IMG/VR virus record: IMGVR_UViG_3300024264_000006
Location: 32,001 to 96,000 of that record
DNA from: a virus
Strand: one strand, 5' to 3'
Length of the DNA stretch: 64,000 bases
Every line of letters begins with the position of its first letter. Within the stretch, counting starts at the first letter, position 1. Under the pieces are notes generated by a model. It saw only the letters and a program-made list of their open reading frames with translations, had not been told where the DNA came from and did not search any database. A program made the position numbers and the translations under genes. Shown here one piece after another: positions 15,338 to 58,485 of this stretch.

Positions 15338-15545
15338 CGTCTGTCAGAAAATGTTTTTTGATTGTTTCAATCTTTTCTTCTGCCTCGGCAATTTTAGTTA
15401 TTTGAGTTTCAATGGCCTCGACGATATCAGGATGTTCCCCAATACCAACAGAACTAGTTAAGTAAACTTCAGTGTTTGCTTTTGCTATTGCAATCTCACC
15501 TTCTAGTCTTTTTACTAGAGCTTCAATTAGACTTAGATTCTTCAT
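15312..15545 (-). CDS. hypothetical protein
   Basis: VGIGEHPDIVEAI motif common in phage small proteins. Confidence 0.6.
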   Translation of the reverse strand: MKNLSLIEALVKRLEGEIAIAKANTEVYLTSSVGIGEHPDIVEAIETQITKIAEAEEKIETIKKHFLTDGEGGTWSV

Positions 15546-15969
15546 CTTTTTTTCCTTCCTCCTTTTCATCTACCTGTTCTTCCTCTGAGTTAATAGTACG
15601 GTAGTAAACTACTACTTCCTTTAATTGATTAATGTATCTACGAATTTCTTGCATATTGTATGCCATGAGTTCATAGTCACCAACCGACATCGCTGTAAAG
15701 ACTAATTGTCCTTGATGTCTCTTCTTGATATCCTCAAGAAAAGTTTCGATGTTTTTATCAGATACAACATACCACTGTGGGTCTTTCAATGCGATTGCAC
15801 GTGGCATCTGTGGATGTGTGATCGGGATTTGTACCTCTACAGTACGAATTTCTACAGGTATTGGTTTAGGTGGTTCGTTCTTTCCCCAAGGGATAGACAG
15901 AGTAGAACATCCACTAATCATCAATGCTGTCGATAACAGCAGTATCGTTTTCAATCGTTCTGAATACAT
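15523..15969 (-). CDS. lipoprotein, o-spanin candidate
   Basis: Lipobox-like LMISGC followed by a Pro-rich segment; overlaps the upstream TM/coiled-coil gene. Confidence 0.55.
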   Translation of the reverse strand: MYSERLKTILLLSTALMISGCSTLSIPWGKNEPPKPIPVEIRTVEVQIPITHPQMPRAIALKDPQWYVVSDKNIETFLEDIKKRHQGQLVFTAMSVGDYELMAYNMQEIRRYINQLKEVVVYYRTINSEEEQVDEKEEGKKDEESKSN

Positions 15970-16318
15970 CTTTTGTCCCCTTGTTTATACGTGTTTCAAT
16001 TAATCCCGGCTTCGCAGCTGCCAATCTAGATAGATCGTGTCTTGCGAAGATTGCCAGATACCGTTGCGCTTCCGCTTCAATCTCTGCATTACGAGTACTC
16101 ATGGTATTGAGTGCTTCGGTGGTTTTCTTCAGATTAGTCTGAAGTGCTTCGATAGTACGGACTTGTTCCGCCTGTCGAGTTTCGAATGCGGATATGACTC
16201 CCGCCTGAGTTTGTAGTTGGGCCTGCATCTCTTGAATAGTGCCTTGAGTTGTTTTGAAATAAACATACCCACCAAGACCCATTGCAAGGATGATCCCAAA
16301 TAAGACTTTACTAAACAT
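15914..16318 (-). CDS. i-spanin candidate
   Basis: N-terminal TM helix plus a long coiled coil. Confidence 0.55.
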   Translation of the reverse strand: MFSKVLFGIILAMGLGGYVYFKTTQGTIQEMQAQLQTQAGVISAFETRQAEQVRTIEALQTNLKKTTEALNTMSTRNAEIEAEAQRYLAIFARHDLSRLAAAKPGLIETRINKGTKDVFRTIENDTAVIDSIDD

Positions 16319-54549: not shown

Positions 54550-54807
54550 TTATACGAATTTTGCGAGGGTTTCAACAACCTTTACTAGTTTTTGTTTCAT
54601 CTGAGTAATCTCTGCTTCTTCCCAGATCAGTTCTGTGGTGCGAATATCACCAAGTAGTTCGATGTATTCTTCTTCTGTCAGTTCACCTTCACGTCTAGCA
54701 TGGACTATATCGATGATGACCTCTCCCAGTCTACTGGCTTCCCAGTCTTCATCTTCGTTATCGATAATCTGTTGAAGAATCCTTTCTTCTTCTGTATATC
54801 TAGTCAT
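54550..54807 (-). CDS. acidic hypothetical protein
   Basis: Coupled ORF. Confidence 0.55.
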   Translation of the reverse strand: MTRYTEEERILQQIIDNEDEDWEASRLGEVIIDIVHARREGELTEEEYIELLGDIRTTELIWEEAEITQMKQKLVKVVETLAKFV

Positions 54808-55205
54808 TAGTCATATCTCCCCATAACCGTTAACGCAATTGCTTCTGATTGTTGCAACAATACACCTTGTTTTAAGGCACAGTATCTTTGCGATACAGTT
54901 TCCTTTTCATACATGGGGTCTAGGGTTAAAGACATCTTATCCAATAGGTATTCAATGTCACTAGTACCCTTAGTTTCCACATAAGTACTTAACCAACCAT
55001 GCTTCTTATAGATGTCATCTATCATGTGTGTGATTAACACCGGATCAAGTTCACAATCTAACCAGATGATTGCCCATCTTAAATCGGTTACACCAGCTGC
55101 CTCATTGTCATCCCATTTGGATGGCAACAAACTACAACCAGTAATCATTATTCCCAACAGGGAAGCTGTAATTATACTATAAAATTTTCTCACTGTCAAC
55201 CTCAA
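54807..55205 (-). CDS. putative lipoprotein
   Basis: LLGIMITGC lipobox. Confidence 0.6.
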   Translation of the reverse strand: MRLTVRKFYSIITASLLGIMITGCSLLPSKWDDNEAAGVTDLRWAIIWLDCELDPVLITHMIDDIYKKHGWLSTYVETKGTSDIEYLLDKMSLTLDPMYEKETVSQRYCALKQGVLLQQSEAIALTVMGRYD

Positions 55206-55681
55206 TCTGATAATGGATTATCTAAAGCTTTCTGCAATTTCTCGTCTAGTTTTTCTTCTAGTTCTTCTATCTCTTTTCGCAGTTTAGCATATGCTTGATC
55301 ATAATCATCGGATAACTTATCTCGACGATTCTCAAATCTTTCTTCTGCATTATCTATACTATTCCTAACGTCCACTTCTACGGCCCGTATTTTATCGTCT
55401 ATACGATCCACGTTCTTTTCAAGAGAAAGTAAATCATCACGAAGACCCGACTTGATATCACGAGTATAGTCAATAGCTTCATCTAGTTTAGTTTCGATAA
55501 TTGCATTACGGGACTCAATCTGATCCACATCAATGTTTTGAACAACCTCTCTCATGTCCATGTAGTCCTTATAGAACTCAAAACCAGCCCAAGATGCTCC
55601 GCCCAATGTAGACAGTGCGGTAAGTAAGATTGCCATCTTACCCCCAGTAAATTTCATTCCCGCAAATTCTACCTCTGCCAT
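55202..55681 (-). CDS. membrane-anchored coiled-coil protein
   Basis: N-terminal TM helix, then heptad-rich helix. Confidence 0.65.
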   Translation of the reverse strand: MAEVEFAGMKFTGGKMAILLTALSTLGGASWAGFEFYKDYMDMREVVQNIDVDQIESRNAIIETKLDEAIDYTRDIKSGLRDDLLSLEKNVDRIDDKIRAVEVDVRNSIDNAEERFENRRDKLSDDYDQAYAKLRKEIEELEEKLDEKLQKALDNPLSD

Positions 55682-55683
55682 TC

Positions 55684-56139
55684 TTACTCCTCAAATTTTA
55701 GTTTACGTAGGTTGACGATCTCTTGTTGCAACCTCATAACTTCTAATCTTTTTTTCTCTAATTCTAATTTGTATAGTGCGTTGCAGTTTAACCTTTCTTT
55801 AGGTGCACCGATTGGCACTGTGATCCTTGCGTATACACCAACGTTACGCATAAAGTCATCATTGTAAGGTAATAGTACTCTATTTGGATCGACAAAACTG
55901 CCGTTCCCCGTCCTGTATTGATCCCACGGATCGTTTTGATCCATGATACCGACAACACCAAACTCTAAGTTCGTGGATGAACCGATAGCTGCTGAACACT
56001 CAACGTCACCCGCTCTCACTCTATCAGACTGAAAACTCTGTGGCGACTGTGGTATTGCCAAGTTCAAAGAACCAGACTGTGCGTTCACCGAGCTCGACCA
56101 GAAACTTATTACCAAAACAAATAATAATATTAATCTCAT
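55684..56139 (-). CDS. secreted protein with beta-hairpin and coiled coil
   Basis: Signal peptide (VNA/Q); LEFGVVG and VGVYARITVPIG amphipathic strands; two Cys. Confidence 0.6.
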   Translation of the reverse strand: MRLILLFVLVISFWSSSVNAQSGSLNLAIPQSPQSFQSDRVRAGDVECSAAIGSSTNLEFGVVGIMDQNDPWDQYRTGNGSFVDPNRVLLPYNDDFMRNVGVYARITVPIGAPKERLNCNALYKLELEKKRLEVMRLQQEIVNLRKLKFEE

Positions 56140-56510
56140 TTTATTTTCGAACATATCCTTGAAGCGATTAAGGCCTTTGTGCCAGAATCTTTCACTAATT
56201 TAGATTTTGAACAGATATATGTTACTTTTTCACTGTCCGACTTTCGGACGTAAATGTTAACTGACGCCCTACTCAAATACTTTACTCTTATAATTCTCTG
56301 TGCAACCGCAAAGGGGACTGGATTCCAATCACTGTCCCATACGTTTATCTGGTAGTATTCAACATCTGGTCTACCATTCCACAGTTCCATCTCAGTAACC
56401 AAAACCGATTCGACATATGATTGAGTTAGTTCTGGATAAGTGGGTGTCCACTCGTGGGCCTTCAGACCCACTGAGCAGAACACCAAACTTAGTATCATAA
56501 CAAAGCGCAT
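56136..56510 (-). CDS. secreted Ig-fold protein, fimbrial chaperone-like
   Basis: Signal peptide (LKA/H); TPTYP, L.N...YYQINVWD..W..VPF; C-terminal Cys pair. Confidence 0.45.
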   Translation of the reverse strand: MRFVMILSLVFCSVGLKAHEWTPTYPELTQSYVESVLVTEMELWNGRPDVEYYQINVWDSDWNPVPFAVAQRIIRVKYLSRASVNIYVRKSDSEKVTYICSKSKLVKDSGTKALIASRICSKIK

Positions 56511-56514
56511 ACTA

Positions 56515-57012
56515 TTATATAGCGATACACTCAGCTGTTACCACTGAACGATATTGTCCAGCAGGAAAAGCCTTGTCGTAACCATAATTAGCAGTCGATG
56601 CGACCTTAAACCATGTGCTTCCAGCAATAGTCAAGTCGATCTCTGTTATGTTATTGTACTCAATTTTGTTGTTGTCATAAGCAGACATAGCAGCATCAGA
56701 TACTTCTGATACAGTTACATCACCAACCCAAACCACCACATCATTAAGAGTAGGACTCTCTGTGAATTCATTCGGTCTTGAGATGACAGCCTTGTAGTAA
56801 TCCGCTTGGATTACGTCATACCTAACGACAGGCGGTACACCACCGTTCGACAGATTAGTTGTCAACGTATTTGGCGTTGGGTTACCATAGACACCTTGAG
56901 TGTCTGTTGTTACTACACACTTAGAATCTACAGAGCCCATAATTGGGACTTCGGCAGCTACTGCGTTAGACAACGTAAAAATGCCTAGTAAGGCAAATAT
57001 ATTTTTAAACAT
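56515..57012 (-). CDS. secreted pilin-like protein (chaperone-usher/Csu-type pattern)
   Basis: Signal peptide (AVA/A); I.GSV...CVV first strand; C-terminal PAGQY..VV. Confidence 0.5.
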   Translation of the reverse strand: MFKNIFALLGIFTLSNAVAAEVPIMGSVDSKCVVTTDTQGVYGNPTPNTLTTNLSNGGVPPVVRYDVIQADYYKAVISRPNEFTESPTLNDVVVWVGDVTVSEVSDAAMSAYDNNKIEYNNITEIDLTIAGSTWFKVASTANYGYDKAFPAGQYRSVVTAECIAI

Positions 57013-57039
57013 TATAGTGCTCCTATGTAAAATGTTTTT

Positions 57040-57906
57040 TTATTTTTTATACTGTAAATTTACTAACTCTTTATGTAATAACTGTTGAGCGAGATTTTGT
57101 CTCCGTAACAATCGATTGTCTGGAAGACTTGCATCTTTCAAAACAACAGTTTCTTCATATTTCGAGTCCGGAAGAACTTCAAAGTAACTAACCGGAATAT
57201 AATTCTGAGCCATCAATGACGTATGTTTACGTAATGATTCAGAGGCCAACAACGAGTTGTTAACCGTACCCAAAATCGCCTCCAGTCTCATATCTTCTAT
57301 CTCTTCTTCCGACATCATTTTTTGACGATCTTTATCTTCTTCATCCTCATCACGTGGTTCCCAATCCTTTTCTAGTTCTCTCTGAACCCACTGATCGTTA
57401 AGTGGATCATAAAACCCTATCTCCGGAATTACCGGAACAGGTGGGATATAGTCGGGACAAGATGGGTCTGTAGTAACACCAAAACACGTATCGTAAGAAT
57501 AATTGTACAATACGGTGGCGCCCTCTACCGAACCTTTCCCTTCTACTTCAATCGACCCATCTCCCCAAAACTCTAATGGTATTGTATTGACGGGTACGAG
57601 TTTATTGATTGAGTTGCCAGGCAACCCACTCCAGTCATCTGCGTTCCTAAAGATATAACCACCATTGATGGCATCTTCGTTTTGAACATAAACAACCATA
57701 TCATCTTCTGCATTCTTTACCGTAGTATAACGGTATACGATTCCATTGACAGTCAATCCCGCATTCTGAGGCAGGATATTAGTCATAACCCAATTGAGGC
57801 CAAATGCGGCCGCATTGGGTGAAGTTTCGTTTACTTGTTCAGAGTAAGAGTAGGACGAGCAAACTAGCAATGCCAGCGCCGCCCAATAGTGTCTTGTTTT
57901 GGTCAC
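57040..57906 (-). CDS. secreted beta-rich protein
   Basis: Signal peptide; beta domain, C..DPSCP linker, acidic tail. Confidence 0.6.
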   Translation of the reverse strand: MTKTRHYWAALALLVCSSYSYSEQVNETSPNAAAFGLNWVMTNILPQNAGLTVNGIVYRYTTVKNAEDDMVVYVQNEDAINGGYIFRNADDWSGLPGNSINKLVPVNTIPLEFWGDGSIEVEGKGSVEGATVLYNYSYDTCFGVTTDPSCPDYIPPVPVIPEIGFYDPLNDQWVQRELEKDWEPRDEDEEDKDRQKMMSEEEIEDMRLEAILGTVNNSLLASESLRKHTSLMAQNYIPVSYFEVLPDSKYEETVVLKDASLPDNRLLRRQNLAQQLLHKELVNLQYKK

Positions 57907-58444
57907 TCATCGGCTCCTTTTTCTTATCTTCATCTTCAACGGGTAAATCATCAGTATTTACTGACCATGCAGCTTTAGCTTCCTCACCTATTAGTCCATC
58001 AAACGGACAAGGTGTACCAGCATTCATCATAGCGTCAAAAACCCGTGGGTCTTGACACATAAGAGATACTGCTGCAACTTTCATACCCATATCGAATAAT
58101 GTCTTAGAATTTTTTAATCTTTCACAGTTATCGTCTGTTACTTGTGTGCCTGTTGAGATACCTAGTATCTGAGTTTGGATTGCACCCGCAACACCAAACG
58201 TACATAGGTCTGAGTTGGAGGTATTGATCGTAGGAGAGATCGCTGAGGCCGGAGGCGACTTCAACGTAGTAGTAGTATTACCATTAGTGGTAACGGTAGA
58301 CTCAGTTATGATAGGTTCGATTGCAGGCGTTACGGGTTCATCCGTACCCCCGCCACCATCTTGAGCGTTAGCGTCTTCTGCCAGTAATCCGAAAGAGAAC
58401 ACACAAAGTGCAATCAAGGACAATTTTCTTATTGCGTTATACAT
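57839..58444 (-). CDS. secreted, C-terminally anchored protein
   Basis: Signal peptide; four Cys in the mature region; C-terminal TM helix. Confidence 0.65.
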   Translation of the reverse strand: MYNAIRKLSLIALCVFSFGLLAEDANAQDGGGGTDEPVTPAIEPIITESTVTTNGNTTTTLKSPPASAISPTINTSNSDLCTFGVAGAIQTQILGISTGTQVTDDNCERLKNSKTLFDMGMKVAAVSLMCQDPRVFDAMMNAGTPCPFDGLIGEEAKAAWSVNTDDLPVEDEDKKKEPMSDQNKTLLGGAGIASLLVLLLL

Positions 58445-58477
58445 ATTATACCCATTGAAAATAATTCATATCAAGGG

Positions 58478-58485
58478 TATTTATA
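58478..58485 (-). promoter_or_regulatory. T4-type late promoter
   Basis: Exact TATAAATA flanked by the inverted repeat TCAAG...CTTGA. Confidence 0.75.

Follow-up and report, generated by a model that had tools for sequence, protein, structure and literature searches.

Tailed phages assemble in the cytoplasm, which raises the question of what such a phage does with a late operon whose products are sent to the envelope of the infected cell. The question is posed by a cassette of eight consecutive minus-strand genes, here called P1 to P8 (54550-58485), in a stretch of 64,000 nucleotides (nt) of viral DNA. This stretch, referred to below as the window, comprises bases 32001-96000 of the 147.6-kb IMG/VR virus record IMGVR_UViG_3300024264_000006, the completeness of which is estimated at 87%. 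The genome is T4-like, with a gp43-type DNA polymerase, a tail sheath and a baseplate hub, and belongs to an uncultured marine myophage; judged by the polymerase, its nearest isolate is Phage C48C1 (69% identity), followed by cyanomyophages (47%). A first-pass annotation had interpreted the operon as a possible fimbria-like surface system. We tentatively favor a different answer, namely that the cassette is a late envelope module which forms a periplasmic assembly tethered to the inner membrane. Given the cytoplasmic assembly of tailed phages, six conserved late proteins that are all sent to the envelope imply an unrecognized step of infection.

The operon is preceded by a T4-type late-promoter motif, TATAAATA (58478..58485, minus strand), located 33 nt upstream of the ATG of P1. 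The motif is enriched in the window, with 10 copies against 3.5 expected, and 0 shuffles reached 10. The eight genes behind it are tightly packed, with gaps of 2-27 nt and overlaps of 1-68 nt. P1 and P2 share 68 nt, P2 and P3 are 27 nt apart and P3 and P4 4 nt apart; P4 and P5 overlap by 19 nt, a gap of 2 nt separates P5 from P6, and the last two boundaries (P6/P7 and P7/P8) are overlaps of 4 and 1 nt, respectively.

The destination of the products can be read from their N-termini and cysteines. Signal peptides were judged by rule (basic n-region, hydrophobic core and small-x-small cleavage site), and P1 to P5 all show them, a pattern retained in 14-15 divergent relatives. A crude screen for hydrophobic N-termini flagged 20 of about 201 open reading frames (ORFs) with an ATG start, most of them resembling membrane anchors; P1, P3, P4, and P5 are among these, while P2 (GTG) and P7 (TTG) fall outside the ATG-only screen. 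Because few other candidates occur outside the cassette, a run of five signal-peptide genes is far beyond chance. The mature proteins moreover contain even numbers of cysteines, four in P1 and two each in P2, P3, P4, and P5, and these are invariant in the sets compared, with the exception of one P5 cysteine (15/16), as expected for proteins oxidized in the periplasm. The first-pass annotation had described one late promoter, five consecutive genes with signal peptides and paired cysteines, and then a transmembrane/coiled-coil protein, a lipoprotein and an acidic protein. Each element of this description holds, as does the direction of the operon to the infected-cell envelope: the genes are late, wholly envelope-directed and conserved in their order.

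This order reaches well beyond the record itself. A search with P3 recovers 42 viral contigs, and the succession P1-P2-P3-P4-P5-P6 is kept in each of them that reaches far enough, down to identities of 58% for P3, 36% for P4, and 27% for P6; the synteny named earlier as a check on the system is thus conserved across related viruses. The cassette is also modular. Of the viral loci that contain P6, 58 extend far enough upstream to be compared; all six genes are found in 44/58, and 14/58 have only a trio that consists of P1, one long exported P2-like protein and P6. P3, P4, and P5 co-occur strictly and in fixed order. The cassette is thus a composite of an older trio P1/P2/P6 and of P3-P4-P5, which sit between P2 and P6, apparently as an insertion.

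The long P2-like proteins read in four trio-only loci measure 534-747 amino acids (aa) and end in LRNGLAQQLLHxxMVxMQY (E ~1e-6 against P2). P2 represents a short form of these proteins, the match of the C-terminal motif having E-values of 2e-6 to 9e-6; they carry C...PLYDxxCPGY repeats in tandem, and a single one is retained in P2. In the loci L094 (5074-7005), L136 (4734-6977), and L114 (5385-6989) there are 4-9 tandem repeats of ~22 aa with two cysteines each (C...PLYDxxCPGYxxAY...QQ), and this exported cysteine repeat gave no family match. The idea that P3 to P5 are fragments split from a long P2 was discarded, as no similarity was found.

A similar trio is found in eight cultured marine phages, where a P1 homologue is accompanied by a long acidic exported protein and by a membrane-anchor/coiled-coil protein ending in NPL. 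The carriers infect Pelagibacter (HTVC115P, HTVC023P, HTVC033P, HTVC202P, Baldr, and Mosig) and Roseobacter (CRP-207 and CRP-810). Firm homologues in these phages are the P1 domain and, for P6, gp49 of HTVC115P (37% identity, E 6.5e-29); for the remainder the likeness lies in shared position and architecture. Profile comparison with the cultured-phage counterparts yields a probability of 91% for P6, confined to the membrane segment, and of 24% for P2. Two proteins with P6-like architecture, CRP-207 gp73 (L053:3292-3873) and CRP-810 gp51 (L058:5219-5641), are labelled 'lysozyme' in GenBank and have no visible enzyme domain; this label is probably a misannotation. Beside the trio, a membrane protein with the shared C-terminal segment YFVSVAAIVAAF.GGQA is encoded both in a viral contig (L061:5182-5736) and in a Roseobacter phage as CRP-207 gp72 (L053:3870-4226); it may represent a holin or an additional partner of the trio.

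What the inserted genes encode is best approached through P4 (124 aa, 56136..56510, minus strand), which combines a signal peptide with a single immunoglobulin (Ig) domain of the PapD-like/MSP type. The AlphaFold model of P4 has a predicted local distance difference test (pLDDT) score of 84, and the mature protein of 106 aa forms one domain. In Foldseek the model retrieves domain 1 of PapD, Caf1M, DraB, FimC, and SafB at the top (E 4e-4, query-normalized template-modelling score, TMq, 0.5-0.64). VIA, a rigid structural aligner used as a second fold comparison for P3 and P4, aligns ~100 residues with domain 1 of FimC, SafB, CfaA, YadV, PapD, CsuC, and EcpB at Z 10.4-8.1, and MSP domains score equally well (Z 9-10). 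The first-pass view of P4 as a single Ig-fold domain of chaperone type is therefore borne out by the model, at Z ~10 against PapD-like domain 1 and MSP alike. Two invariant cysteines lie on the last two strands, Cys100 on strand 98-104 and Cys120 on strand 118-122, and the loop between them has a pLDDT < 70. FGL chaperones are defined by an F1-G1 disulfide that flanks a long flexible loop (PMC4133393), and a predicted Cys100-Cys120 bond in P4 would be F1-G1-like.

Other features of P4 depart from a pilus chaperone. A second domain, as in chaperones that combine PapD_N and PapD_C, is not there, and longer relatives were not found, which is weak evidence; searches with hidden Markov models (HMMs) gave no PapD_N match for P4 or in the 87%-complete record. 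R47 is the sole invariant basic residue. The N-terminal strand has the sequence HEWTPTYP, and in the last strand the basic residue is not invariant. The mature N-terminus (56400-56456, minus strand) begins with histidine in 16/16 relatives, in the pattern AXA|H-x-x-x-P-T-Y. A role of this histidine in a copper histidine brace was considered and is unlikely, as there is no second invariant histidine.

The gene directly upstream, P3 (165 aa, 56515..57012, minus strand), encodes a signal peptide followed by an Ig-like beta-sandwich. Its AlphaFold model, built with 24 sequences (pLDDT 90), shows the sandwich from residue 31 on, and the conserved mature N-terminus (residues 20-30) lies outside it as a free stretch, EVPIMGSVDSKC. 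In Foldseek against the PDB, CfaB and CsuA/B make up the top six, with Caf1 and the PapG pilin domain lower; the pilin matches have E-values of 8e-4 to 1e-2 and template-modelling (TM) scores of 0.33-0.46. With VIA, MSCRAMM N3 domains and Ig domains of Gram-positive pilins rank highest (Z 7.6-7.7), and the PapG pilin domain scores Z 5.3. As a pattern match, the P3 sequence V-P-I-M-G-S-V-D-S-K-C-V-V agrees with the h-x-h-x-G-x-V-(4)-C-x-V of the Fim pilins FimA, FimI, FimF, and FimG, so that a donor-strand-type motif is followed by a first strand bearing a cysteine; like these pilins, P3 also has a glycine at -14. The invariant cysteines are Cys32 on the first strand and Cys162 at -4, near the C-terminus. 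The second cysteine thus does not follow the first by ~40 residues, as in the pilin disulfide between strands A and B, and the penultimate residue is alanine, not tyrosine.

Membership in the pilin families Fimbrial (PF00419) and SCPU (PF05229) was sought in vain, P3 having no Pfam hit at E<=1. Its 1070 relatives form a compact family confined to metagenomic or viral DNA, and a profile search of 1.8 billion representatives returned just 112 proteins, most of which are fragments, and nothing as large as the family of bacterial pilins; BFVD gave nothing. The P3-like proteins at the greatest distance, such as P0202 and P0229, are singletons on contigs <= 5 kb and turned up in none of the viral, metagenome and genome collections. 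Within the cassette, the conservation of P3 is second only to that of the P1 domain. P3 is, according to its model, an Ig-like sandwich with pilin-like sequence landmarks, but in structure it does not match pilins specifically. The two sequence patterns quoted for it in the first-pass annotation, I.G.V...C.V and PAG.Y, are present and conserved. What survives of its designation as a chaperone-usher pilin is the Ig-like fold, the pilins as best Foldseek matches, the N-terminal motif and the glycine at -14, while the rigid aligner prefers MSCRAMM and Gram-positive pilin Ig domains. The structural check proposed at the time thus delivered the Ig folds of both proteins and not the pilin specificity of P3. 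That adjacent genes independently match a subunit and a chaperone is nevertheless unlikely by chance.

The three genes of the trio surround this pair and P5. P1 (201 aa, 57839..58444, minus strand, ATG start; phrog_20531, function unknown) consists of a signal peptide, a Thr/Ser-rich linker, an extremely conserved four-cysteine domain (residues ~60-170), an acidic linker and a hydrophobic C-terminal tail. The domain is also present in phages of Pelagibacter, Roseobacter, Achromobacter, and Ralstonia. At its terminus (57839-57900, minus strand) P1 has a conserved KTLLGGAGxASLLxLLLL, with zero basic residues beyond, and the protein ends exactly there. This tail resembles a sorting signal (GlyGly-CTERM-like) more closely than it does a usual membrane helix, although it had no match among the NCBIfam models. 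The overlap between P1 and P2 (57839-57906, minus strand) encodes the hydrophobic tail of the one and the signal peptide of the other in two frames, and relatives retain the overlap.

P2 (288 aa, 57040..57906, minus strand, GTG start) has a signal peptide, a conserved beta-rich N-domain, a single C...DPxCPGY motif, an acidic linker and a conserved C-terminal motif, LRxxLAQQLLHxELVxLQY; it has no match in Pfam, PHROG, the PDB or the protein atlas. P6 (159 aa, 55202..55681, minus strand) starts with a short N-terminus (EFxGxxFxGGK), continues with a Gly/Ala/Ser-rich membrane segment and a coiled coil, and closes with an invariant C-terminal DNPL motif. The coiled coil varies in length, such that relatives measure 152-249 aa.

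The remaining members are P5, P7, and P8. P5 (156 aa, 55684..56154, minus strand; phrog_37374, function unknown) shows a signal peptide, a beta-rich part with two conserved cysteines and a C-terminal coiled coil, and matches only viral hypothetical clusters in the protein atlas. One P5 homologue, in L027 (6889-7332), has the lipoprotein signal FIAGC, and all others have ordinary signal peptides. P7 (132 aa, 54807..55205, minus strand, TTG start) is a lipoprotein with an ITGC lipobox and a helical mature part with two cysteines; it is a variable accessory, detected beside P6 in no more than roughly half of the related loci. The same applies to P8 (85 aa, 54550..54807, minus strand), which is rich in Glu and Asp, lacks an export signal and occurs only in the closest relatives.

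In the reading that we favor, the members of the cassette would be exported by the Sec pathway and then oxidized in the periplasm. P4 would hold or cap P3 via beta-strand complementation, like domain 1 of a pilus chaperone. P1 would be an exported four-cysteine domain held by its hydrophobic C-terminal tail, P2 an exported protein that varies in its N-terminal part and has a conserved helix motif at the C-terminus, and P6 the inner-membrane anchor, the periplasmic coiled coil of which ends in DNPL. On a frame made of P1, P2, and P6 the subunits may dock, thereby forming a complex in the periplasm with a tether to the inner membrane, which may reach toward the outer membrane via P5 and, where present, P7. 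As there is no usher or other pore, such an assembly most likely stays inside the envelope and is not a surface fimbria. We think that it acts on the infected-cell envelope late in infection, possibly in receptor masking, superinfection exclusion or the tuning of lysis, a guess made from its location and timing.

Several points weigh against this reading. The role is a guess based on location and timing, and the contacts between the proteins are inferred; what the analysis shows are the export signals, the conserved cysteines, the gene order, the modularity and the two predicted folds. The VIA scores of P3 (Z < 8) may denote no more than a common arrangement by the tool's own warning, which weakens its pilin likeness, and PapD-like/MSP folds such as that of P4 are found in many unrelated contexts. 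Profile searches revealed no sequence-level link to chaperone-usher proteins, so that the fold matches rest on models. Finally, a pore gene could sit in the missing part of the record, because the record is only 87% complete.

Three alternatives survive better than the rest. One of them, an unlikely one in our estimate, keeps the inner-membrane frame and turns the complex into a chaperone/subunit system that dispenses with an usher: P4 would prime P3, which would polymerize on the frame by strand exchange into a periplasmic or surface fibre. Another supposes that there is no assembly at all. Each member of the cassette would then be an independent exported protein with a common Ig-like fold that binds some target in the host periplasm or outer membrane, the resemblance to chaperone and pilin being generic. 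The low Z-scores of P3 with non-pilin Ig domains at the top, the wide distribution of PapD-like/MSP folds and the lack of any sequence-level relation to pilus proteins in our searches speak for this explanation. It sits poorly with the strict co-occurrence of P3-P4-P5, fixed in order in every locus, with reading frames that overlap or abut, and with neighboring genes that match two partners of one known system, and it is likewise improbable.

A third explanation, to which we assign a similarly low probability, is that of a lysis accessory built around P6, either a second, non-canonical trans-envelope complex of the spanin kind or a regulator in the periplasm that sets the time of lysis. The topology of P6 is i-spanin-like or class III holin-like, and P7 (as well as P5 in one relative) is a lipoprotein. 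The genomic position of the trio in cultured phages speaks for it as well: in HTVC033P the neighbors of the trio are the gene of a verified endolysin (Amidase_2) and one that is holin-like, in HTVC023P it directly precedes a gene annotated as M15 peptidase, and in HTVC202P, Baldr, and CRP-207 it lies just ahead of the terminase, where lambda-like phages keep their lysis genes. The phage, however, already has its own lysis genes. Away from the cassette, two overlapping genes (15523-16318, minus strand) encode an Rz-like i-spanin of 134 aa (15914-16318; phrog_739, E 8.5e-14), with an N-terminal membrane segment and a coiled coil, and an Rz1-like lipoprotein of 148 aa (15523-15969; phrog_812, E 3.7e-12), which starts with a Pro-rich part and has the lipobox LMISGC. 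Outside the window, a minus-strand region (G000:C1:111964-113077, corresponding to L046:16964-18077) encodes an endolysin of 201 aa (phrog_938, E 3e-19); its N-terminus is hydrophobic, and it may be of the signal-anchor-release type. In this region two small membrane ORFs follow the endolysin gene and could encode a holin or pinholin.

P6 matched no spanin or holin model, and the T4-type holin T (Phage_holin_T, PF11031) had no match for P6 or elsewhere in the record. P6 and P7 as the spanins of the phage were therefore rejected, given the canonical Rz/Rz1-like pair elsewhere, the poor conservation of P7 and the lack of a spanin PHROG match; so was the cassette as the core lysis set, given the separate location of the endolysin and its adjoining small membrane ORFs. 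With its own Rz/Rz1-like spanins and endolysin encoded elsewhere, the phage does not use the cassette as core lysis machinery, and an accessory or regulatory role is what this explanation can still offer.

The fimbria-like surface system of the first-pass annotation fares worse, and we consider it quite improbable. It would require a true surface fibre, in which P3 polymerizes by donor-strand exchange, P4 acts as a minimal chaperone and the fibre exits via P5, a host usher or another pore. The free h-x-h-x-G-x-V N-terminus of P3, its glycine at -14, the pilins as best Foldseek matches, the chaperone domain-1 fold of P4, and the conservation of P3, the highest after the P1 domain as expected of a polymer subunit, all fit this picture. 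The machinery does not. Across the 147.6 kb of the record, which is 87% complete, nothing matches the usher family (PF00577) at E<=1, SCPU has no match in the record either, and no usher-sized ORF lies within the conserved six-gene block of related loci. Mature P5, the proposed exit, has only ~130 aa and a C-terminal coiled coil. No observation made here favors P5 as an outer-membrane pore or P2 as an adhesin-like subunit. P4 has neither a domain 2 nor clearly equivalent basic residues to anchor a subunit, and P3 lacks the penultimate tyrosine and has its second cysteine at -4. Pfam, NCBIfam and PHROGs yielded nothing informative on the cassette proteins, and profile searches with P1 to P4 against PDB sequences yielded nothing; by sequence comparison, no cassette protein is significantly similar to a functionally characterized family or to a solved structure. 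Without an usher, with a one-domain P4 and with no profile links, the cassette lacks what defines a chaperone-usher system, although two neighboring members look like the soluble partners of such a system, and a surface fimbria is less likely than a periplasmic complex. Least credible of all is the notion that the products are virion proteins with hydrophobic N-termini which do not serve export, for which the late promoter alone speaks, against canonical cleavage sites, a lipobox, invariant even-numbered cysteines that point to an oxidizing compartment, and the lack of any match to structural-protein families.

The periplasmic module tethered to the inner membrane, which we prefer, would be built from parts that abound in viral DNA from the ocean. 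The P1 domain is found in at least 7987 clusters, with a functional name in 0 of the 120 relatives listed, P6 in at least 585 viral loci and P3 in 1070 clusters. The trio is carried by cultured phages of SAR11 and Roseobacter, dominant marine heterotrophs, and all eight phages examined have cultured hosts. No published description of the cassette was found in the literature searched. If the strand complementation between P3 and P4 is true, it would be, according to that literature, the first virus-encoded assembly of the chaperone/subunit type and a minimal version of the mechanism; a fibre without an usher, if true, would be a product that a very abundant group of ocean phages makes late in infection. 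Even without strand complementation, what is left is a defined candidate module that could exclude superinfecting phages, mask receptors or control lysis in marine phage-host systems.

Among the known systems closest to the cassette is the chaperone-usher pathway, represented by the FGL pairs Caf1M-Caf1 and SafB-SafA, by DraB, and by the class 5 and archaic pilins CfaB and CsuA/B, the proteins of which likewise leave by the Sec pathway and have neighboring genes. Domain 1 of these chaperones can be superposed with P4 (Z 8-10, with a root-mean-square deviation of ~3 A over ~100 residues), and the cysteine pair of P4 on the last two strands resembles the F1-G1 disulfide of FGL chaperones; P3 shares with the pilins the Ig-like sandwich, the h-x-h-x-G-x-V...C motif and the glycine at -14. 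Unlike that pathway, the cassette has no usher, its P4 has one domain in place of two and no clear equivalents of the anchoring residues of the PapD R8/K112 type or of Caf1M R20, and there is no Pfam or profile similarity. P3 differs from the pilins in the missing penultimate tyrosine and in the placement of its cysteines, one on the first strand and one close to the C-terminal end instead of on strands A and B, and the partners P1, P2, P5, and P6 have no counterpart in pilus operons. MSP/PapD-like domains outside pili, as in VAP MSP, ASH and WxL-interacting proteins, match P4 as well as pilus chaperones do, but these are cytoplasmic proteins or belong to the Gram-positive surface, and no gene for an Ig-like subunit is linked to them.

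The two-component spanins Rz/Rz1 share with the cassette an inner-membrane protein whose coiled coil lies in the periplasm (P6), lipoproteins (P7, and P5 in one relative) and late expression. They differ in that the phage has a separate Rz/Rz1-like pair, that P6 and P7 match no spanin model, and that P7 is a helical protein which is neither Pro-rich nor conserved. A further group of phage envelope proteins targets the infected cell and includes RI/T of T4 in lysis inhibition, Imm/Sp of T4, and Llp of T5 in receptor masking. No sequence or fold relation to these was found, and they are single proteins or pairs, whereas the cassette would be a six-protein module; what joins them is that phage-encoded periplasmic or membrane proteins alter the behavior of the infected-cell envelope.

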